Source: Scenedesmus sp. PABB004
Lineage: Eukaryota
NCBI GenBank assembly: GCA_014905635.1
Contig: CM026547.1
Coordinates: forward strand, 3,968,001-4,032,000
Length of the DNA stretch: 64,000 nt
Direction of reading: 5' to 3'
The notes below the pieces were generated by a model. The model searched no databases. It saw only the letters and a program-made list of their open reading frames with translations, and was not told where the DNA came from. Position 1 is the first letter of the stretch. Each line of letters opens with the position of its first letter. A program made the translations under genes and the position numbers. This document shows positions 1 to 11,420 of the stretch, piece after piece.

Positions 1-528
1 CGGCCGCACGCCCGGCGCGCCCGGCGGCGTCGCGGCGGGCGGCGCCGAGGCGGGGCTCATGCACGAGTGCAGCAGCCCGCCCGGCGGTGAGGAGGAGCTG
101 GAGGCGGAGCACGGCGAGCTCATGGAGAGCATTCTGGAGGACGAGGAGGAGATCATCGCGCTGCACCGGCAGCAGATCGAGGACGCGATGGAGATCGTGC
201 GCCGGTGCGACCGCGGCGCGCGGCGCGCGCGCCGCGGGGTGTGCGCGCGGCGCCGCCGCGCCGCCGCTCTGGGGGCGCGGCCGAGGGCGCGGCCGCCGCG
301 CGTGCGCGCGCGCGTGGCAGGGAGATGGCGATGCTGCAGGAGGTGGACCAGCCGGGCAGCTCGATCGACCAGTACGTCGACGCGCTGGAGGCGGTGCTCG
401 CGGCCAAGATGGAGGGCATCCGCCACCTCCAGGGCCGCCTCGAGCGCTTCAAGTCCAAGCTGCGCGCCGAGGACCTCATGAGCCGCACCGTGCAGAAGAA
501 GCAGGGCGGCCACGCGCCGCGCTGCTGA
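1..528 (+). CDS. Kinesin-13 family protein, C-terminal part (5'-truncated by window edge; intron 205-320)
   Basis: The spliced translation ..ILEDEEEIIALHRQQIEDAMEIVRR|EMAMLQEVDQPGSSIDQYVDALEAVLAAKMEGIRHLQGRLERFKSKL matches the conserved plant/algal kinesin-13 tail. GT..AG intron; TGA at 526-528. Confidence 0.8.
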
Positions 529-934
529 GAGCGCCGCGCCGCGCTGTACAGCTGTCGACCCGGCGGCGGCCGGCACGCGTGTGCGTGCGCGCGTGGCGTT
601 GCGGATGGCGGGCGGGGCGGGTAGGGTAGGCAGAGAGAGCTCTCGGTCACTGTGCAGTCACGGCGCTCGTGGCGCGCGCGGCGCGCACCTCGGCCCAGCG
701 GCGGCGCGCGCAGCGGCGGCGCGCAAAAACCGCGGCGGCGGTCCAGCGGCCAGGCCTGCCGCCGCTGGCAGCGCGCGCCGCCGCCGCCGCGCCCGCAGCC
801 CGGCCCCGCAGGCCGCCCGCCCACGCCGCCGCGGCTGCGCCTGCTCCGCCAGCGCTGCTGCCTCGCCAGCGGCGGGCTGCTGCGCCCCCCGCCTCGCTCG
901 CGGCGGCCAGCGGCTGCTGGGTGGGCGTCCCAGG

Positions 935-1625
935 ATGTGCAAGGGCCCGGCGGAGGACGCCTGCGTCCCGCGCCGGGACGACGGCGGGAGCTCCAGCGAT
1001 GAGGTGCGCCGCGGGCCTGCCACGCGCGCCCCCGGCCCGCCCCGCCCAGCCGGCGCGCCTCCCTCGCGCACCCGGGGCCCGGGTAGACCACCGCAGGCGG
1101 GCAGCACGCATGCTGCGAGCGGCGGCGGCAGCGGCGCCCGCTGCTCGCCGGTCGCTGCTGCCGCTGCCCTGGCCGGCGGCGCCGCTGCCTGCCCTCACCG
1201 GCGCCGCCGCTGCGCGCCCCCGCCCCCGCTCCAACCCCTGGCCGTCCGGCAGGAGGAGGCGGCGCTGGACCGGCGCATCGCGCAGGCGCTGGAGTGCCCG
1301 TGCGTCGACGACCTCAAAGCGGGGCCGTGCGGCGAGCTGTTTGTCAGCACGTTCACGTGCTACCACAAGAGCCGCGCCGAACCCAAGGGCTGCGACTGCC
1401 TGGACGTCAGCCTAGCCTTCGCGGTGCGCGGCGGCGGCGCTCGCGCCCGCGGCAGCCGCGCAGCGCCCCGCGCGGGAGGAGCGCGGCTGCGCCGCGCGGC
1501 GCCGCGCGCTCGGCGCGACGCCGCCGCGCTGCCGCCGCTGGCAGGACTGCCTGCGGAAGCACCCCGACGTGCTGGACGACCTGCACAGCGCCAAGAGCCT
1601 GGCACTGCCAAGTGCCGGCCGCTGA
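935..1625 (+). CDS. MIA40: Mitochondrial intermembrane-space oxidoreductase MIA40 (exons ~935-1003, 1253-1423, 1545-1625)
   Basis: ALECPCVDDLKAGPCGELFVSTFTCYHKSRAEPKGCDCLDVSLAFA|DCLRKHP contains the CPC active site followed by twin CX9C motifs. Start codon uncertain. Confidence 0.85.
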
Positions 1626-1853
1626 CGCGGCGGCGGCGGCGCCGCTCGCGCCGCCGTGTACGTGTACGCAGCTGCGGCCTGTACCAACAGTCGCCCACGG
1701 CGGCGGGGCTTTCTTGTGAGGGGCATTGGCGGGGCGGGCTCGCCGGCGCGCGCCTAGTAAGGCCGCCGGTGCCGGCGGCGCGCCGCGCTGCGCGAGCGTC
1801 GCCCGGGGTCGCGCCGTTGTCGGCGCGCTGGCCGCGGCCGCCGGGCGGCCGCG

Positions 1854-1858
1854 TGTAA
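1854..1858 (+). promoter_or_regulatory. TGTAA chlorophyte polyadenylation signal (MIA40 3' UTR)
   Basis: TGTAA lies ~230 nt after the MIA40 stop. The motif is rare in this GC-rich DNA and is the established chlorophyte poly(A) signal. Confidence 0.55.
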
Positions 1859-1884
1859 ACCAATGGGCGAGCGCAAGAGACAGA

Positions 1885-2710
1885 CACGCCGCGTTGCCGA
1901 TTGGGGGGGGGGGGGGGGCGCACGCGCGCCGTGCCGACCGCTCTGCGCGCTGGCGGCGCCGCAGGCGCAGCGCCGGGGCCGCGGCAGCTCGCTGCGCATG
2001 GCCGCAGCGGTTCAAACCGGCCCCAAACCCCGCTGCAGCCCAGCCCGCGCGCGCCCGGCGCCCCCACGCGCCGTGGCCGGTCGCCCACGCCAACAGGCGC
2101 CAGCGCGGGCGGCGCCCGCGCGCCCAGCGCCCGCACAGCCAGAGCGCGCCGCAGCAGCAGCCTGGCCGGGCGCACACACGCCCGGCCCCGCGTCTCCGCC
2201 GGCCCACGGGGCGCGCGCCCGCCTGCGGGTGGTGTCCGGGCTGCAGCCTGGTCGCCGGCCAGCAGCGCGGCGGCGACCGCCCCGGGCGCTGCGCAGCGGC
2301 CTCGGCTGCTGCTGGCGGAGCGCCGCGCCGCCGCGCGGCCAGAGCCGGCCAGGCAGGGCTCGCAGCCGGTACTGGTGCCATCGCCCACGCTGCCCGCACC
2401 GGCGGCGGCAGGCCGCAGAGCGCGAACGTCGGTCGGGGGCGCGGCGCCTCCCGCCGCTGCGCCCCGACCCCGTGCTGGCGGCACGCTGCCGCCAGGCCCC
2501 CCTGCCCGCCGCAGGCGGCGCGGCGTGTGCGGCGGCGCGCAGCGCGGCGGCGCCCCGGCCTGCCCTGCGCACGCCGGCCTGGACCTTGGGCTGTGTCTGG
2601 GCTCGGGGCCCGGCCGCGCGCGGCGGGGTGCGCGGGCGCCGCTCCACCTGCTGCTGCGCTGAGGGCGCCCGCCCCCGCGCGCGCCGCGCGGCAGGCGGCC
2701 AGCGCGCGGC
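1885..2710 (+). repeat. Long inverted repeat, left arm (~826 bp)
   Basis: Reverse complement of 4737-5553. The ORF translations of the two arms are identical over long stretches in several frames. Confidence 0.95.
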
Positions 2711-2941
2711 GGACGGGCGGCCAGGGCGTCCGGCGGCCGTCGGGACCGGCGCGGGGGCTTTTCGATGGCCCTGCGCGGCGTGCGCAGCCTCGGCGTCTTT
2801 GGGGTTCAGGGATCTGGACGCCAATCACCTCGGTCTCCCCGCACGCCAAGGCCCCCGCCCGGTGCCCGCCTGAAGCCCACCCGCCACGCCGGAGCCCGCC
2901 GCCCCGCCCCGAGCAGCCAGACGCCCGCAGTCGCAGACGCC

Positions 2942-4168
2942 ATGGCCCTCATGATGCAGCGCGCCCAGGGCGCCAGCGTGGCGCGGTCCGCCCGCAGCGT
3001 GGCGGCCCGGCCCGCGGCCGTGTCCCGCTCGACCCGGGCAGTGGTCGTGCGCGCCCAGGACGCAGCTGCGCCCGCCAAGGCGGAGGCTCCCAAGTGGACG
3101 GAGCCCACCCTCGACCCCGACACGCCCTCCCCCATCTTCGGCGGCAGCACCGGCGGCCTGCTGCGCAAGGCGCAGGTGGGGGCGGCGTCGGGGGGGCCGG
3201 GCGCCCACCGCTCGCGCGGCAGCGGGGGCCGCGGCATCGCCCGGCAGCTCGGCCCGATCCCGGGCGCCCCCGCGGCGCAGCGCGCGGCGTGGCGGCCTTG
3301 TCCGCGTGGCCGTGCCCCGGTCTCGGCGCTGGGACGCCTGCCTGAGCGGCGCGGGCGCGGGACGCTCGCAGGTGGAGGAGTTTTATGTGATCACCTGGGA
3401 GAGCACGAAGGAGCAGATCTTTGAGATGCCCACCGGCGGCGCGGCCATCATGCGCAAGGGCCCCAACCTGCTCAAGTTCGCGCGGAAGGAGCAGTGCCTC
3501 GCGCTGACGACCCAGCTGCGCAACAAGTTCAAGTTCACGCCTTGCTTCTACCGCGTCTACCCGAGCGGCGAGGTCGAGTACCTGCACCCCAAGGACGGCG
3601 TCTACCCCGAGAAGGTCAACGCCGGCCGCGCAGGCGTCAACCAGAACTTCCGCCGCATCGGCGAGAACGTCAACCCCATCAAGGCGCGCGACCGCGCGCG
3701 CGCACGCGCGCGCGCAGCAGCAGCAGCGGCGCCGCCGGCGCGCGCGCCGCGGCGCCAGCGCCAGCGCCAGCGCGAGCAGTGGTGTGGGGGCGTCGCGCTA
3801 TGCCCCGCAGCTGAGCAGCGGCGGCGGCGGGCGCGACGGCAGCGGCGGCGGCAGCAGCGGCAGCGGCAGCAGCGGCAGCGGCGGCAGCGGCGGCAGCGGC
3901 GGCAGCGCACCCGCAGCGGCAGGAGTGGCGGCAGCGGCGGTTGCAGCTGCGGCACAGCGGCAGCGGCAGCGCGCAGCGGCAGCACTGCCACGCAGCGGCA
4001 GCGCTCCCGGCAGCAGCGCCACACGGCGGGCGGCGGCGCCGCGGGGGGTCGCCCCGGCCGCGGCGCGCGCGCGCGCGCCGCGCACGCGCTCACCCGCCCG
4101 CGGCCGCCCGCGCCCGCTGCCGCCGCGCGCAGGTGAAGTTCACCGGCAAGGGCACCATGGAGATCTAA
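2942..4168 (+). CDS. psaD: Photosystem I reaction centre subunit II (exons 2942-3175, 3372-3683, 4133-4168)
   Basis: Transit peptide followed by [100 protein letters not shown]. Intron 2 has a GC donor. Confidence 0.98.
3810..4020. repeat. Degenerate (GGCAGC)/(GGC) microsatellite in psaD intron 2
   Basis: Visible tandem cggcagcggcagcagcggcagcgg.. tract. Confidence 0.75.
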
Positions 4169-4736
4169 AGCTCCGGAGCCGCCTGGGTGGGAGTCATTAG
4201 TTCAGCAGCGCACACGCCCCGCCGGAGCGCGCGCGGCGCGCCCGGCTGCAGCAGCAGCAGGGCGGCGCGTGCAGCTAGGCGGGGCGGGCAGTAGGCCCTC
4301 GCGCAGGCACAGCGCGCAGTGCGCGGCGCGCGGCAGCAGCAGCAACGAGCAGCGGCGGCAGCCTGTCGCAGTCGCCCCGAGGCGGCAGCCGCTGCGGCCG
4401 CCCCTCGCGCGGGGGGCGGCCGAGCAGCGAAAGCAGCAGCAGCAGCACGGACGGACATCGATTTGCTCCGAGGTGCTGCCGCGCGCACCCGGGGCGTGTA
4501 GGTTTCGATCTGCACACCCGTCCCGTCAAGGAGTTCCGGCGGTGGGAGTGTGCGCCCGTTTTCCGCGGGCAGGCGCGCGGCGCAACTGCGCGGCGGCACC
4601 CGCCGCTGCGCGTGCACGCCTTTTGGTTGCGGTAGGCACGCGTGCAGCGCCAGGCTGCCCCGGCAGCCAGCCGGCTGGCCGAGCGAGGTAATCACTCGCT
4701 CCCCTGTCGTTCGCGCCGACGGCTGCTGGCCAGTCA

Positions 4737-5553
4737 GCCGCGCGCTGGCCGCCTGCCGCGCGGCGCGCGCGGGGGCGGGCGCCCTCAGCGCAGCAGCAGG
4801 TGGAGCGGCGCCCGCGCACCCCGCCGCGCGCGGCCGGGCCCCGAGCCCAGACACAGCCCAAGGTCCAGGCCGGCGTGCGCAGGGCAGGCCGGGGCGCCGC
4901 CGCGCTGCGCGCCGCCGCACACGCCGCGCCGCCTGCGGCGGGCAGGGGGCCTGGCGGCAGCGTGCCGCCAGCACGGGGTCGGGGCGCAGCGGCGGGAGGC
5001 GCCGCGCCCCCGACCGACGTTCGCGCTCTGCGGCCTGCCGCCGCCGGTGCGGGCAGCGTGGGCGATGGCACCAGTACCGGCTGCGAGCCCTGCCTGGCCG
5101 GCTCTGGCCGCGCGGCGGCGCGGCGCTCCGCCAGCAGCAGCCGAGGCCGCTGCGCAGCGCCCGGGGCGGTCGCCGCCGCGCTGCTGGCCGGCGACCAGGC
5201 TGCAGCCCGGACACCACCCGCAGGCGGGCGCGCGCCCCGTGGGCCGGCGGAGACGCGGGGCCGGGCGTGTGTGCGCCCGGCCAGGCTGCTGCTGCGGCGC
5301 GCTCTGGCTGTGCGGGCGCTGGGCGCGCGGGCGCCGCCCGCGCTGGCGCCTGCTGGCGTGGGCGACCGGCCGCGGCGCGTGGGGGCGCCGGGCGCGCGCG
5401 GGCTGGGCTGCAGCGGGGTTTGGGGCCGGTTTGAACCGCTGCGGCCATGCACAGCGAGCTGCCGCGGCGCCGGCGCTGCGCCTGCGGCGCCGCCAGCGCG
5501 CAGAGCGGTCGGCACGGCGCGCGTGCGGCGCCCCCAATCGGCAACGCGGCGTG
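4737..5553 (-). repeat. Long inverted repeat, right arm (~817 bp)
   Basis: Reverse complement of 1885-2710. I see about 4 substitutions and 2 homopolymer-associated indels. Confidence 0.95.
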
Positions 5554-5956
5554 CCGGCCCCCCTGTGCTCCGCGGGCGCGCCCATCGCGCGGGTGGGGCG
5601 CGCCAGCACACCCGGGCGGGCAGGCGGCCCCCGGCTGGCGCACCCTGTGGGCCGGCGCGCCAACACACAAACGCTCCCCAGTTTGCGCCGGCGACGCGCA
5701 GCGCCTGAGGTGCGCAGCCTGCGCGCGCGCCGGGGGGGGGGGCCCAGCGGTCAGCGGCGCCCGGCCGGGGTGCCTGGGGTCTGTGGTGCGGCCGGGGAGT
5801 CGCAGCAAAGCGTCGCAGGCGGCGCCGGGCGGCGCGCACTTGGGCGCCGCGGTCGCTGCCGGCCGCGCGGGCGCCGGCCTGGGCCCCCTCGGCGGCCCCG
5901 CCGGCCTCCGATCGGCATGGTCTCGCGCCTTTCACATTGCCTGGCGCGGCGCGCGC

Positions 5957-5964
5957 TTTGGCGG
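5957..5964 (+). promoter_or_regulatory. Possible E2F-type site TTTGGCGG upstream of the SNF2 gene
   Basis: Matches TTTSSCGS ~300 nt upstream of the ATG. A single short motif that could be chance. Confidence 0.25.
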
Positions 5965-6206
5965 GCCGTGGGGCGCGCGGGGGGGGCGCTGGAGATTCGG
6001 TTGTGCTGCTCCCGCCCACCGCGGCGCGCGGGCGGGCGGGGCCCGCCTGATCCGGCGCCCTCGCCGCTCACACACGCTGCCGCCGCCCGCTCCCGCCCCC
6101 TCCTGGCCCCGCAGGGCAGCGCGCGCGCGCAGCGGCGGGCGGCAGCAGCGGCGCCCGCGGCAGCGCGGGGCGACGCGGGGCGGCGCCGGGCGCCCCACCA
6201 CCACCT

Positions 6207-6244
<38 letters not shown>

Positions 6245-6260
6245 CAGCGCGCGGCGCGGC

Positions 6261-9200
6261 ATGGAGGGCATCATCGACGACGAGCAGCCCGGGGACGTCC
6301 CCGTGACGCAGCTGCTCGCGACCGCGGCGGGCCAGGGCGGCGGCGACGGCGCGGGGCCGTTCACCGACCTCGTGTCGCAGTTCCAGCTCGGCCGCTCCAG
6401 CGCCGCCGCCGCCGGTAGCGGCGGCGGCGCGCTGCCCGGTGCGCCGGGCGGCGCCGCGCTGCAGCAGCCCGTCCTCGACTGGGGCGCCGACAACGGCGCA
6501 ACCGCGGCGGCGCTCGCGCACCTCGGCGCGCTCGGCGGCGGCGCGGGCGGCGGCAGCGACGGCGGCGGCGGCGGCTTCCGCGACATGAAGCGCGCGCGCA
6601 TGCACGACGGCGGCAGCTCCAACCAGCTCGCCGCGCTCGGCGGCGCCAACGCGACGGGATGGGCCGGCGCGGGCGGCCCGATCGAGGGGACTGACTTTTC
6701 GTCCGTCTACGAGCAGGCGCGCGCGACGCAGCAGCAGCAGCAGCTGCTCTCGGGGCAGGGCTACGGCGACGTGCCGATCAACAGCATGCAGCTGCAGCAG
6801 CAGCAGCAGGCGCTGCTGCTGCAGCAGCAGGCGTTTGGCGGCCTGCCGCAGGGCGGCGGCCGCTACGGCACGCGCTACGGCGGCGGCTACGGCCGCCCGC
6901 CGGCCTCGGCGGCCGCCAACCCCACGCGCCTCACGACGGGCCACAAGCACCAGGAGTACCTGGAGCAGCTGCGCAGCCGCCTCGGCAACCAGGCCGCCGG
7001 CACGCACATGCAGCTGCGCCAGAACGCGGGCCCGCAGCACGTCAACTACGCGCAGATGGCCGGCATGGGCCGCTACGGCGGCTTTGCCGGCTACGGCTAC
7101 GCCGCGCTGCCGGGCGCGGGCGGCGGGCGCGGCAGCTCGGGGTCGTTCAAGCAGGCCGACCCCGAGGCCGACGCCGACCAGGTGCTCAACAAGTGCGAGC
7201 AGGTGCGGCCCCGACGGCGCGCGCGGGCGCGGCACGCGCGGGCGCGTGCGCGCGGGGGCGGCGCCCGGCGCCGGGGCCGCCGCGCGCGCCGCCGACGCGC
7301 GCGCCGCGCCGCGCGCCGCGCCGCCAGATCTCTGCCAACCTGCGCAAGGCGCTGGGCGGCGAGGGCGACGAGGTCGTCGACGCGACGGGCCAGGAGGCGG
7401 ACGGCCTGGGCGGGTCGGGCGCGCTGAAGCTGGTCGAGCGCGGGCCGCGGCTCGAGGCGGCGACGAGCCCGCTGTCGGACCACCTCAAGCCCTACCAGAT
7501 CGTGGGCATCAACTTCCTGCTACTCCTCTACCGCCAGCAGGTCGGCGGCGCGATCCTGGCGGACGAGATGGGCCTCGGCAAGACCGCGCAGGCGATCTGC
7601 TTCCTGGGGCTGCTCTCAGAGTTTGAGAACGACAGGCGCGGCGGCGCAGCGGCGCGCGCGGCGCGCGGCGCAGCGCGGGACGACGCAGCGCGGCGCGGAG
7701 CGCGGGGCGGCGCGCGGCGGGGCGATGCCGGCGCGAGCGCGCCCGCCGACGCCGCCCGCGCCCGCCGCGCCCGCCGCGCTCCGCAGCGGCCCGCACCTGG
7801 TCGTCGCGCCGGCGTCGCTGCTGGAGAACTGGGAGCGCGAGCTCGCGCTCTGGTGCCCGCGGCTGCGCGTGGTGACGTACCACGGCGCGCACAAGGAGAT
7901 GGTGCGCAACCAGCTGGAGAAGTGGCGCTACGACGTGAGTGGGCCGCCGCGGCCGCGCGCGCGCAGGGCAGGGCGGCAGGGCAGGACGGCAGGGCAGGGC
8001 GGCGGGGCAGGGCGGCAGGGCAGGGCGGCCTGCGGCGGCGGCGCGGCGCGGCGCGCTGCGCGGCGCCCACGGCGCCCCGCGCGCCCCGCGCCCGCAGGTC
8101 GCTGCCGAGCTCGACAAGGGCAGCATCACGGAGCCGCCCCCCGGCTGGCTGCGGCCGGGCGAGTACGCCGACGGCGGCGAGGACAGCGGCTCCTCGGGTG
8201 CGCGGCGCGGCGGGCGCGTACACAGGGGCAGCGCGAGGCCCGCGCGGGCCGCCGCCCCTGCCGCGCGCCCGCGCCGACGCCCCGCGCGCGCGCGCCCGCG
8301 CCGACGCCCCGCGCGCGCGCGCCCGCGCCGACGCCCCGCGCCCGCGCCGCCGCGCCGCGCCCGCGCCGCGCCGCCGCGCGCAGAGGACGAGGACGACAAC
8401 CGCTACGCGCAGGAGGAGTTTGGGGAGCAGCCGTTCCACGACCACGGCTACGAGGACCTGGCCGACCCCAAGAGCGGGCGCGGCGCGTTTGACGTCATGC
8501 TCACCACCTACACCCTCTTTGAGCGCGTCGGCGCGAGCAACAGGTGCGCCCGCCCGCGGCGCCAGCGCGAGCCAGCCGCAGCGCCCGGCGGCGGCGGCGG
8601 CGCCCGGCGCGGCGGCGCCAGCGGCGCCGGGCGGCGGCCGACGCAGACCCTGCCGCGCCCGCCCGCGCCCGCGCGCGCCGCGCCGCGCAGCGCTGACCGC
8701 TCGTTCCTGCGCAAGTGGAAGTGGAGCCAGATGATGCTGGACGAGGCGCACGCGCTCAAGAACGCGGCGAGCCAGCGCAGCCGGCGCCTGCGCAAGCTCG
8801 CGGCGGGGTGCCGCGGGCGCGTGATGCTCACCGGCACGCCGCTGCAGAACGACCTCGGCGAGCTGCACAACCTGCTGACCTTCCTGCTGCCCAGCATCTT
8901 CAAGGAGGCTGAGGAGACGGGCGAGGGCAGCTTCGGTGCGCACAGCGCGCGCAGCGCGCAGCGCGCGGGCGCGGCGCGCGGCCCCGTGCCACGCCGCCCT
9001 GCCCCGCGCGCGCCGCCTCACCGTCGCCGCGCCGCGCGCCGCGCCGCGCGCGCGCGCAGACGAGGCGCTGCAGCGCGCGCAGAGCGACCCGGCGGCCGAG
9101 GACCGGCTCATCAAGCGCATGCGCGGCCTGCTGGGGCCCTTTGTGCTGCGCCGCCTCAAGAGCGAGCTCGCGGAGCAGATGGTCACCAAGGAGCACAAGA

Positions 9201-11420
9201 TGCACGAGGTGCGGCGGCGGGGCTGACGTGCGGCGGCGGCGGCAGGCGGGGGAGAGGGGCGGGGGGCCTGGCCACGCCCCGCCGTGCCGCGGGCTGCCGA
9301 CCGCGCCGCGGGCTGCCGACCGCGCGCCGCCGCCGCGGCCGCCGCGCGCAGGTGGCGATGTCGGCGGAGCAGGCGTCGCTGTACAAGGCGGCGGTGGCCA
9401 AGGTCCGCGACGAGGTCATGGCGGCGGTCGAGGCGGCGCAGGCGGGCGGCGGCGGCAGCAGCAGCGGGCGCAACGCGCGCGCGCGCAACCTCAACACCAA
9501 GTACTTCAACGAGGCCGGCGGCGGCGAGGGCATGGCGCCCATCCCGATCACCATCTCCAAGCGCAAGCGCGGCCGCGCGGCGCCGGGCAAGGAGGACGAC
9601 GAGGTGGGCATCATGGACGGCCTCGGCCTGGAGGGCCTGGGCATGTCGAGCGCGACCGCGAGCGAGGGCGGCGCGGGCGCGATGTCGACGCTCAGCGGCC
9701 AGCCCGGCAGCCGCGCGGGCAGCGAGGCGCCCACGCCCGGCGGCGGCGACGCGACCGACACCGCGGCCACGAGCGGCGGCGGTGCCGCCGGCGGCAGCGA
9801 CGGCGGTGCCGTCACGGGCGGCAGCGGCGTCGCGGCGGGCGCCGGCGGCGGCAGCGTCGTCAGCGGCTCGCGGCGCAGCGGCGGCGGCGGCGGCATCGCG
9901 AAGAACAAGGACGAGGCGGCGGCGATGGTGGCCAAGCTGGGCAGCCAGCGCATCAACAACATCTTCACGCACCTCCGCAAGATCTGCCAGCACCCGCTGC
10001 TCGTGCGGCACCACTTCACCGACGAGCTGGTCAAGGAGATCGCCAACGTCGCGAGCGCCAACAAGCTCTACGGCGGCAACTGCTCGCTGCCGCGCGTGCT
10101 GCAGGAGATCTCGGGTGCGCGCCGCGACGCCGCGTGGCCGCGGCGCGGGCGCCGCCCGCCGCCAGCGGCCAGCGACCAGCGGCGCCGCGCCTGCACGCGC
10201 GCCGCCCGCCTGCCTGTCAACCCCGCCCCGCCGCCCCGCGCCGCCGCCACCCGCCGTCCCGCCGTCCCGCGCCCCCGCCGCGACTGGGTCCAGGCTACAA
10301 CGACTTCCAGCTGCACAACTTCTGCCGCAACTACCCCGCCCTGCTGGGCCAGCACATCCTGCCGCCGAGCTGCCTCATGGCGAGCGGCAAGCTCGTCGCG
10401 CTCGACAAGCTGCTCACCGAGCTGCGCGAGAAGGGCAGCCGGCCGCTCATCTTCAGCCAGTGGACGACTGTGCTCGACATACTCGAGTGGTTCCTCCACG
10501 AGCGCGGCCTCACCTACGTCCGCCTCGACGGCAGCACCGCGGTGCGCGCCGCGCCGCGCCCGCACGCTGCGCCGCGCGCCGCCCGCACGCCGCGACGCGC
10601 GCCGCCCGCGTGCCGCCGCCCACGCGCCGCCGTCGCCCGCACGCGCGCCCATGCGTGCCGCGTCTGCGCCGCGCCGCAGGTGTCTGACCGCCTGAGCATC
10701 GTGGACAGCTTCAACGACCCCGCCGGCGGCGTGTTCACGTTCCTGCTCTCCACGCGCGCGGGCGGGCAGGGCCTCAACCTCACCGGCGCCGACACTGTCA
10801 TCCTGCACGACGTGGACTTCAACCCGCAGGCGCGCCCCTGCCGCCGCCGCCGCCGCCGCGGCGGCGGGCCTGCCGCGCCGCGCCGCGTCTGCCGCGCCTG
10901 CCGCGCCTGCCGCGCCTGCCGCGCCGCGCCGACGCCCCGCCCCCGCCGCGCGCGCACGCGCGCTCTTGCCCGCGCGCAGGTGGACCGCCAGGCGGAGGAC
11001 CGCTGCCACCGGCTCGGCCAGACGCGGCCCGTGACGGTGCACCGCATGGTGCTCGCCAACACGGTGGACAACAACATCTTCCAGATCGCGCAGCGCAAGC
11101 TCCGCCTCGACAAGGAGGTGCTGGAGGGCGTGACCGTGACCACCGAGGGCGGCGGCGGCGGCGGGCGCGGCCGCGGCCGCGGGCGCGGCCGCGGCCGCGG
11201 CGGCCGCGGCGACGGCCCCGCGGTCGGCGCGGGCGACAGCAAACACATGGGCGAGATCCTGGCTCAGCTGCTGGCGGGGCACGACGACGACGGCGACGGC
11301 GAGGACGAGGGGGAGGAGGAGGAGGAGGACACCAAGCAGGGCGTGAAGGTCGAGGGCGTCAAGGTCGAGGACGGCGGCGGCGGCGCCGCGGGCATGAAGG
11401 CCGAGGACGGCGCGCAGTAG
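6261..11420 (+). CDS. SNF2-family chromatin remodelling ATPase, SMARCAD1/Fun30/CHR19-like (11 exons)
   Basis: Motifs read across 10 introns: LKPYQIVGINFL, GAILADEMGLGKTAQAI, GPHLVVAPASLLENWEREL, LDEAHALKN, LTGTPLQN, PFVLRRLK, LIFSQWT, RLDGST, FLLSTRAGGQGLNLTGADTVILHDVDFNPQ|VDRQAEDRCHRLGQTRPV. HDVDFNP..DRQAEDRCHR is typical of the Fun30/SMARCAD1 group. Confidence 0.92.
7963..8028. repeat. Degenerate (GGCAG)n repeat in SNF2 intron 3
   Basis: cagggcagggcggcagggcaggacggcagggcaggg.. seen directly. Confidence 0.7.
8262..8341. repeat. 27-bp tandem repeat (~3 copies) in SNF2 intron 4
   Basis: Unit gcccgcgccgacgccccgcgcgcgcgc starts at 8267, 8294 and 8321. Confidence 0.85.

Follow-up and report, generated by a model that had tools for sequence, protein, structure and literature searches.

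Why does psaD, the gene for subunit II of photosystem I, stand alone between two long and nearly identical inverted repeats in a green alga? The arrangement lies in a 64-kb window (the whole stretch of DNA that was analysed), in which a left and a right arm enclose the gene. It could be a genetic switch around a photosynthesis gene, a mobile element with host DNA as its cargo, an error of assembly, or the trace of a rearrangement. The evidence presented here points to the last of these: a local rearrangement on a small scale most likely left this structure as its scar, a genetic switch being the less likely reading, and the structure presumably has no dedicated function.

The inverted repeat and its ends

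A repeat search and a pairwise alignment identify the left arm (1885-2718, forward strand, 834 nt) and the right arm (4729-5553, reverse strand, 825 nt) as reverse complements of each other that bracket psaD. The repeat search divides the pair into two abutting inverted blocks, 1911-2501 with 4945-5535 (591 nt, 99%) and 2498-2718 with 4729-4949 (221 nt, 99%). In blastn, 1885-2718 aligns with 5553-4729 at 97.96% identity over 834 nt, and megablast reports 98.89% over 808 nt for the same arms. Across alignments, the length of the repeat is 826-834 nt. The first-pass annotation of this DNA had placed the reverse-complementary arms at 1885-2710 and 4737-5553, and these segments are the clean core. 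A chance origin of the similarity is excluded.

The homology ends abruptly. Past the arm ends, no similarity better than that of shuffled sequence was found (z -0.7 on the outer side, -1.0 on the inner side), and a possible 11-nt extension of the match at the inner edge (2711-2724) is no more than chance would give with this composition. The inverted duplication around psaD is thus real and discrete, with sharp ends, and the symmetric geometry described earlier holds.

In a self-comparison of the entire 64 kb at E<=1e-15, the arm pair is the sole match, and neither blastn nor the self-comparison detected another copy or fragment of the arm within the window. Since no other repeat reaches this threshold, the arm can be regarded as unique sequence, in surroundings that are dense in genes and poor in repeats.

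psaD and its neighbours

The spacer between the arms (2719-4728, 2010 nt) is unique and contains psaD only. Exon 1 (2942-3175, forward strand, 78 codons) encodes a presequence rich in Ala and Arg, together with the first part of the PsaD domain; it matches positions 3-20 of the Pfam PsaD profile with E 7.1e-4, which taken alone is below the Pfam cut-off. Exon 2 (3372-3683, forward strand, 104 codons) encodes the domain core and matches profile positions 21-127 of 136 in PF02531 (E 1.7e-51, 173.8 bits vs a cut-off of 22.4). It also has strong codon periodicity, with a third-position GC of 0.95. Exon 3 (4133-4168, forward strand) adds 11 codons and the TAA stop, which closes a 193-codon open frame across exons 1-3.

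Both splice junctions are touched by RNA contigs of run X4, which come from relatives. At the GT..AG junction between exons 1 and 2 (3175|3372), these contigs join 3170 to 3367 ("cut +5"). Intron 2 (3684-4132) has the boundaries GC..AG, and here the contigs have loose ends at 3684 and 4131, taken as reading across. psaD is an intact, intron-bearing and apparently functional gene. It has its own flanks inside the spacer, with 223 nt ahead of the ATG and 560 nt behind the stop codon, close to the approximately 230 and 570 nt of the first-pass annotation. Its whole transcription unit is presumably contained in the spacer. A periodicity scan flagged no second exon-like segment besides psaD between 1620 and 6241, as expected from the earlier statement that the gene is alone in its spacer. 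The GC3 of psaD is as extreme as that of the neighbour genes. The nuclear genome of the alga is compact, with ~79% G+C.

The previously proposed neighbours, MIA40 upstream and an SNF2-family helicase downstream, are confirmed by phmmer and Pfam, respectively. The last two coding exons of MIA40, recognised by translation, lie at 1253-1420 and 1515-1622 on the forward strand, with the stop at 1623-1625 (phmmer E 1.9e-10 to human MIA40, PDB 2k3j). The left arm begins 259 nt past this stop. On the other side, 707 nt separate the right arm from 6261, where the first periodic ORF begins. This ORF opens a coding region (6261-11012, forward strand) that is defined by periodicity and Pfam and is not necessarily one gene. 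An SNF2-related domain is located at ~7493-7633 (PF00176, E 1.8e-9) and a Helicase_C domain at ~10680-11012 (PF00271, E 1.6e-13). A TGTAA motif at 1854, situated 27 nt ahead of the left arm, was considered as a poly(A) signal that might mark the arm boundary. This idea was dropped, because TGTAA has only 3 occurrences in the window, both strands counted, and is therefore not the general poly(A) signal here.

Content of the arms

The arms have a G+C content of ~85% in the left copy, and their composition is that of non-coding DNA. Codon periodicity is absent from them (phase-GC spread of at most 0.22, vs 0.54-0.60 in psaD exon 2), and none of the 5 ORFs in the arms (3 in the left, 2 in the right) matched a Pfam family. 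In searches of the arms with Rfam, no family scored below E 0.7; the best hit, a CRISPR repeat model at E 0.76, is meaningless here. A tRNA search of the arms found none, and there was no excess RNA fold in them (fold z -0.43 for the left arm; the other z was +1.93). In view of these results, an RNA gene in the arms was rejected. The arms look non-coding, and the earlier remark that they encode nothing recognisable stands.

Hallmarks of mobile elements were sought in the arms and in their flanks. No target-site duplication of at least 5 nt borders either the complete unit or one of the arms taken singly. The longest direct repeat in the flanks is 4 nt when +/-8 nt of slack is allowed, which bears out the absence of a duplication noted before. 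The two ends of the arm are not inverted repeats of each other, so the arm contains no terminal repeat. A viral or mobile origin was also considered on account of an exact 21-mer of the arm in 2 viral contigs (40% G+C). The match stops by 22 nt, and is therefore attributed to chance. The transposon options, i.e. Foldback/Pack-type capture and double insertion of a repeat, are weakened by the missing hallmarks, by the lack of a second copy in the 64 kb and by a psaD that is intact and has its introns.

Differences between the arms

About 4 substitutions and 2 homopolymer indels had been counted between the arms, and the arm alignment shows this count to be right. The clean substitutions (n=4) are at 1977, 1995, 2074 and 2093, opposite 5469, 5451, 5372 and 5353 in the right arm. 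The left arm has 16 consecutive G at its outer end (1903-1918, forward strand); the corresponding run in the right arm is shorter and interrupted, and the two differ by an 8-nt indel and 2 mismatches. The C-run at 2497 differs by a 1-nt indel, and two further mismatches (2711 and 2715) are located at the inner edge. Three of the 4 clean substitutions are transitions, and 2 of these 3 are CpG/TpG changes. These substitutions look like genuine point mutations.

All four substitutions are confined to the outer 209 nt and are followed by 618 nt that are free of substitutions (P 0.006, simulation). Such an uneven spread is consistent with a later conversion tract, with the proviso that significance is lost (P 0.12) once the 1-nt indel in the C-run at 2497 enters the count.

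A 229-nt contig from a freshwater metagenome run (X2) is identical to 5271-5499, with 0 differences, and has the right-arm state at all 4 substitution sites. The contig is perhaps from the same sample as the window's assembly, so that its independence is not sure, and the left-arm version of the variable sites is without cover in this comparison. Together with the clean point mutations, the contig argues against an assembly duplicate.

Comparison with other loci, reads and literature

The available relatives are 80 metagenome loci that encode PsaD. They are distant, the best being 82-85% identical in PsaD exon 2. None of the 80 has an inverted repeat of at least 80 nt around psaD, and none has a match to the arm. 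Inverted repeats were present in three of these loci only (L025, L045 and L046), away from psaD and in loci of 31-32% G+C. MIA40 was not found near psaD in any of the 80 loci, and an SNF2-like piece (43% identical) was found in a single one (L003). The loci are too distant to have a say on synteny.

The read data consist of 4 metagenome runs that contain 0.06-0.07 of the sampled words; aligned at 90% likeness, they yielded mostly short GC-rich chance pieces. In these sparse runs, RNA depth over the arms is 0-2.7, no piece crosses a junction between arm and spacer, and X2 does not cover psaD exon 2; these gaps have no weight as evidence. Two joints, from 1785 to 5454 (side 24) and from 4783 to 5325 (side 25), were disregarded, as each depends on one low-depth, short-sided contig. 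The best 12 of 696 papers from a non-exhaustive literature search all deal with transgene tools or plastomes, and none of the 12 describes a psaD-bracketing inverted repeat in a green algal nuclear genome.

Origin of the structure

We tentatively favour an origin in which unique intergenic DNA was duplicated locally in inverted orientation, most simply in connection with a staggered-break micro-inversion of the psaD cassette, and the copies were then partly homogenised through gene conversion. This explanation has somewhat less than an even chance of being correct. A by-product of a staggered-break micro-inversion was absent from the four options of the first-pass annotation, and is ranked first here. 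In one local rearrangement, the psaD cassette of ~2.0-2.9 kb would have been inverted, with a staggered break at one of its breakpoints. Fill-in at both ends and rejoining would have left the ~830 bp from between the nicks as two copies in opposite orientation, one on each side of the inverted segment. Later, the inner ~620 bp were probably made uniform again by gene conversion from arm to arm. The cassette could possibly be flipped once more through homologous recombination between the arms. Such a flip would be nearly neutral, because psaD brings its own 223-nt and 560-nt flanks and meets the same arm sequence either way.

The closest precedent is provided by the inversions of the Drosophila melanogaster group. 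According to Ranz et al. (2007, PMC1885836), 17 of 29 inversions have inverted duplications of non-repetitive sequence at their breakpoints. As at psaD, inverted copies are described at both ends of the segment, and no transposon is involved. The Drosophila duplications are of ancestrally unique sequence; here, the arm is unique within the 64-kb window and absent from the 80 distantly related metagenome loci. The D. yakuba duplications have a median of 321 bp and a range from 46 bp to about 1.9 kb, in which the 826-834 nt of the present arms fall, and often one breakpoint alone is duplicated (12 cases), as proposed here (PMC1885836). There are also differences from these fly data (PMC1885836): the Drosophila inversions are cytologically defined, whereas the enclosed segment here is ~2 kb with one gene; the arms are 98-99% identical, compared to a mean of 88%; and the staggered-break model is documented in flies, but the host here is a green alga, in which we infer the inversion.

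With respect to their later history, the arms resemble the palindromes of the human Y and X chromosomes (PMC3723533, PMC8600007) and the long inverted repeats of C. elegans (PMC1803023), which likewise combine near-identical arms with a unique spacer. Arm-to-arm gene conversion is described for these human and C. elegans structures (PMC3723533, PMC8600007, PMC1803023), and the uneven arm differences at psaD are compatible with conversion tracts. The scale and content are different, since the arms in the same reports are kilobases to megabases long and usually gene-bearing, whereas here they are 0.83 kb and non-coding, and the gene is in the spacer.

What counts against the favoured micro-inversion is that an identical anatomy is also obtainable by templated inverted duplication without any inversion, so that the inversion itself is not read directly from the structure. 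In this alternative, the repair of a break that lay ~2 kb away from the source would have copied ~830 bp of neighbouring DNA in reverse orientation, either by a replication template switch or by synthesis-dependent repair, and psaD was never inverted. The unique, non-coding and sharply bounded arms and the missing target-site duplication are accounted for equally well, and the window gives no sign of a past inversion of the spacer. However, ~830 nt would be long for a templated insertion, since those at repaired breaks are usually far shorter, and this alternative has no positive evidence of its own. We regard templated duplication as unlikely, although credible.

Alternatively, a dispersed repeat or dead mobile element could have inserted twice, once on each side of psaD and with reversed orientation, after which gene conversion would have preserved the likeness of the copies; this would fit the uneven arm differences. 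There is no further copy or fragment in the 64 kb, however, and none in the 80 metagenome psaD loci, and the window is without any other repeat at E<=1e-15. Neither arm has a target-site duplication of its own or terminal inverted repeats within it, and no coding remnant is left (0/5 arm ORFs with a Pfam match, no periodicity). This origin appears rather improbable.

An assembly artefact, with one true arm and a second one from a mis-join or a fold-back read, is very unlikely. Two of the arm differences do concern homopolymer length, which is typical of sequencing error, but the arms also differ by 4 clean substitutions, CpG transitions included. Moreover, the arms are separated by a 2-kb unique spacer instead of forming a spacer-less palindrome, and the X2 contig is exact to the right-arm version over 229 nt.

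The structure might also be a functional element, either a flip-flop cassette that tunes psaD, or a source of read-through transcripts with an ~830-bp hairpin that give rise to small RNAs or methylation. Arms of 0.8 kb with 99% identity are a substrate for homologous recombination, and their full complementarity allows the hairpin geometry. Yeasts provide examples of nuclear flip-flops that depend on inverted repeats: the Ogataea polymorpha MAT region and a 24-kb region of Saccharomyces chromosome XIV are nuclear segments between inverted repeats that can invert by homologous recombination (PMC5720833, PMC9731477), an arrangement shared with psaD. In Ogataea, orientation matters because one end is under centromeric repression, whereas here both sides look equivalent within ~1 kb, and the psaD cassette has been seen in one orientation. 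Owing to the symmetric context, a flip would alter nothing within ~1 kb of psaD. Pfam and the periodicity scan found no adjoining recombinase or silencing landmark, and the arms overlap no coding sequence that small RNAs could target. A functional role is thus likewise very unlikely. Even less probable is a maintained recombination cassette, with psaD in both orientations across cells or strains, arms kept identical by selection, and expression of psaD, or of MIA40 or SNF2, modulated by the orientation or by an arm hairpin.

Least probable of all is a DNA transposon of the Foldback/Pack type that captured psaD between ~830-bp terminal inverted repeats: Foldback and Pack-MULE elements do enclose host DNA between long terminal inverted repeats, an outline that the locus matches, but here there is no target-site duplication of at least 5 nt (+/-8 nt slack) and no other copy in the 64-kb window, and the cargo is not a fragment but a complete, intron-bearing psaD with flanks that shares the extreme GC3 of its neighbours.

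Implications

An inverted repeat of 0.83 kb at 99% identity has a practical consequence, in that short-read assemblies will break at psaD. It also makes an orientation polymorphism possible at a gene whose flanks are popular expression elements in other algae, such as Chlamydomonas. The maintained cassette, if true, would represent the first case of a photosynthesis gene inside an invertible nuclear cassette, and the locus would gain much greater importance only if psaD occurred in both orientations and its expression differed between them. If the favoured reading of a micro-inversion is true, psaD offers a clean and very small example of a structure familiar chiefly from inversions in flies and from palindromes on sex chromosomes. 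The compact, ~79% G+C nuclear genome of a green alga would then also be shaped by micro-inversions at staggered breaks and by conversion between arms.

Results

The inverted repeat around psaD

The inverted repeat that the first-pass annotation had placed around the photosystem I gene psaD is confirmed and lies far beyond chance, being the sole match in a sensitive self-comparison of the 64-kb window (E<=1e-15). Pairwise alignment and blastn extend it to a single continuous arm pair, 1885-2718 (+) against 5553-4729 (-), of 834 nt and 97.96% identity; megablast returns 808 nt at 98.89%. In a repeat search of 1-9000, the pair appears as two inverted blocks of 99% identity, one of 591 nt (1911-2501 / 4945-5535) and an abutting one of 221 nt (2498-2718 / 4729-4949), with a gap of 2010 nt separating the arms. 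The remaining arm matches inside the window are GC-rich pieces of at most 99 nt and 72-93% identity.

In left-arm coordinates, the arms differ by four clean substitutions (1977, 1995, 2074 and 2093), by the length of a G-run (1903-1918; an 8-nt indel and two mismatches), by a 1-nt indel in a C-run (2497) and by two mismatches at the inner edge (2711 and 2715). At the outer end of the left arm this G-run counts 16 G; its right-arm counterpart is shorter and interrupted, and a run of 11 G lies about 180 nt past the right arm (5732-5742). Within the 826-nt arm core, the substitutions are confined to the outer 209 nt, with none across the inner 618 nt. By a simulated scan statistic, clustering has P 0.006 for five events (the four substitutions and the G-run change) and P 0.12 once the single C-run indel is added as the sixth. 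Arm-arm divergence is 0.5-0.7%. All but one of the four substitutions are transitions, two of these being CpG/TpG changes, and the differences thus resemble real mutations rather than consensus errors. This is moderate evidence that the two arms are genuine paralogues, and a weaker hint that a conversion tract re-homogenised their inner part.

psaD and its neighbours

As read from the sequence, psaD lies on the + strand, is split into three exons (2942-3175, 3372-3683 and 4133-4168) and ends in TAA. Exon 2 matches Pfam PsaD with E 1.7e-51, the first profile positions falling in exon 1, and has a GC content of 0.95 at third and 0.38 at second codon positions. Metatranscriptome RNA contigs from related organisms (90-99% likeness) join 3175 to 3372 and cross the junction of exons 2 and 3; these joins in relatives support both introns. 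Intron 2 (3684-4132) opens with GC instead of GT, and is full of GC dinucleotide runs, together with a (GCAGCG)n-type array (3815-3983). The spacer adds 223 nt before the ATG and 560 nt after the stop, and a codon-periodicity scan of 1620-6241 flagged no exon-like segments besides psaD.

The window has 79% G+C, and codon periodicity sets coding exons apart. Exon-like segments with third-position GC of at least 0.92 are packed across all of 1-64000, and the longest gaps in the exon signal are about 0.8-1.2 kb, excepting the two that contain the arms. The surroundings had also been described correctly, with psaD in the spacer, MIA40 upstream and SNF2-type coding downstream. The upstream two-exon piece, which closes with the stop codon 1623-1625, is MIA40 (PDB 2k3j, E 1.9e-10), which Pfam missed when the exons were searched singly. 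Downstream, periodic coding begins at 6261 and continues into an SNF2-related and a Helicase_C domain. Short tandem arrays occur in the SNF2 gene region at 7963-8053 and 8238-8376; they comprise five 13-nt units resembling GCAGGGCAGGGCG, and five overlapping units with a spacing of 8-27 nt. At 31-570, strongly periodic + strand exons belong to an upstream gene truncated by the window start; their translation has glutamate-rich stretches (e.g. EEELEAEHGELMESILEDEEEIIALHRQQIED), and the sole Pfam match, DUF1853 (E 0.032), is weak and below the curated cut-off.

TGTAA is the green-algal poly(A) signal. It occurs at 1854-1858, 229 nt past the MIA40 stop and 27 nt ahead of the left arm. Since both strands of the 64-kb window hold only 3 occurrences, about the base-composition expectation, this alga probably does not use it generally.

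Properties of the arms

Codon periodicity is absent from the arms (phase spread at most 0.22, mostly at most 0.12), none of the five long arm ORFs has a Pfam match at E<=0.01, the best Rfam match to the arms has E 0.76, and they contain no tRNA according to ARAGORN. Predicted folding of the arm is not stronger than that of shuffled controls on either strand (z -0.43 and +1.93). Similarity ends abruptly on both sides, the next ~240-285 nt each side aligning locally below the shuffled mean. The target-site duplication (TSD) of the transposon class was found neither for the arms nor for the whole unit: flank direct repeats, around the unit and around each arm alone, reach 4 nt at most (+/-8 nt slack). 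Within a single arm, the two termini do not form an inverted repeat. Two viral contigs share an exact 21-mer with the arm; the likeness spans only 22 nt, in 40% G+C DNA, and was set aside as chance.

Metagenome contigs

Four metagenome runs sharing 6-7% of sampled window words were compared. A 229-nt DNA contig from one of them, X2, equals 5271-5499 with zero differences and agrees with the right arm at each of the four substituted positions. The right-arm version is thus present in a read set, which counts only as weak support against an artefact because X2 may be the source sample of the window.

A scan of metagenome contigs for PsaD exon 2 gave 80 loci of 76-85% amino-acid identity, too distant to reveal the ancestral orientation. 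None of the 80 has an inverted repeat around psaD or sequence matching the arms, and MIA40 adjoins psaD in none of these distant loci. The psaD exon 2 most similar to that of the window (87% at the nucleotide level) is on contig L003 (59.5% G+C). There, psaD is directly preceded on its own strand by a piece 43% identical to the SNF2-gene ORF 11010-11279 (L003:109-456 and L003:1167-1463), which could be either a paralogue or an orthologue whose arrangement differs. Another contig, L049 (1339 nt), carries two psaD exon 2 copies in the same orientation about 700 nt apart (260-570 and 958-1259), possibly a tandem psaD duplication in another alga.

Discussion

The structure is probably a real, locally generated duplication without function, whether or not an inversion took part. 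For unique, non-coding, sharply bounded inverted copies without transposon marks, an inversion with one staggered breakpoint is the simplest single event, and we tentatively favour it. In the ancestor there would have been one arm only, with psaD on the other strand, and inversion of a short psaD segment, with one breakpoint staggered, would have left inverted copies at both ends. The arm could originally have lain beside the psaD 3' end or beside its promoter; the window fits both layouts. In Drosophila, Ranz et al. 2007 (PMC1885836) report inverted duplications of non-repetitive sequence at the breakpoints of 17 of 29 inversions, and explain them by staggered breaks, fill-in and end joining. 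The D. yakuba duplications measure between 46 bp and about 1.9 kb (median 321 bp), and in 12 cases a single breakpoint is duplicated. The psaD arms match those described there in form and size, and are the sole such pair within the 64-kb window. The structure behaves much as a tiny palindrome, or a duplication at an inversion breakpoint, would.

A templated inverted duplication without inversion would yield an identical end state, and is a possible, if rather unlikely, origin. It is unlikely that the arms are two dead copies of a repeat whose likeness conversion has preserved, as neither a family member (in the 64-kb window and the 80 loci) nor a TSD, terminal structure or coding remnant was found. 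An assembly artefact is very unlikely, given that the arms differ by clean substitutions and flank 2 kb of unique spacer, and that the X2 contig has the right-arm version.

Whatever their origin, arms 0.83 kb long and 99% identical offer homologous recombination a substrate, and the psaD cassette can thus presumably invert again. Such an inversion is expected to be almost neutral, because the cassette brings its own flanks and faces the same arm sequence either way. The geometry would allow a functional flip-flop or hairpin locus, and repeat-driven flip/flops are described in yeasts (PMC5720833, PMC9731477); however, the symmetric context takes away the obvious route for orientation to matter, and this reading is very unlikely. 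Foldback or Pack-type capture of psaD is the least credible, there being no TSD and the cargo being an intact, intron-bearing gene of native composition.

A green alga of about 79% G+C is an unusual host for such a structure, which a specialist would find tidy, not surprising. It would touch a long-standing question only if two orientations with different expression exist.
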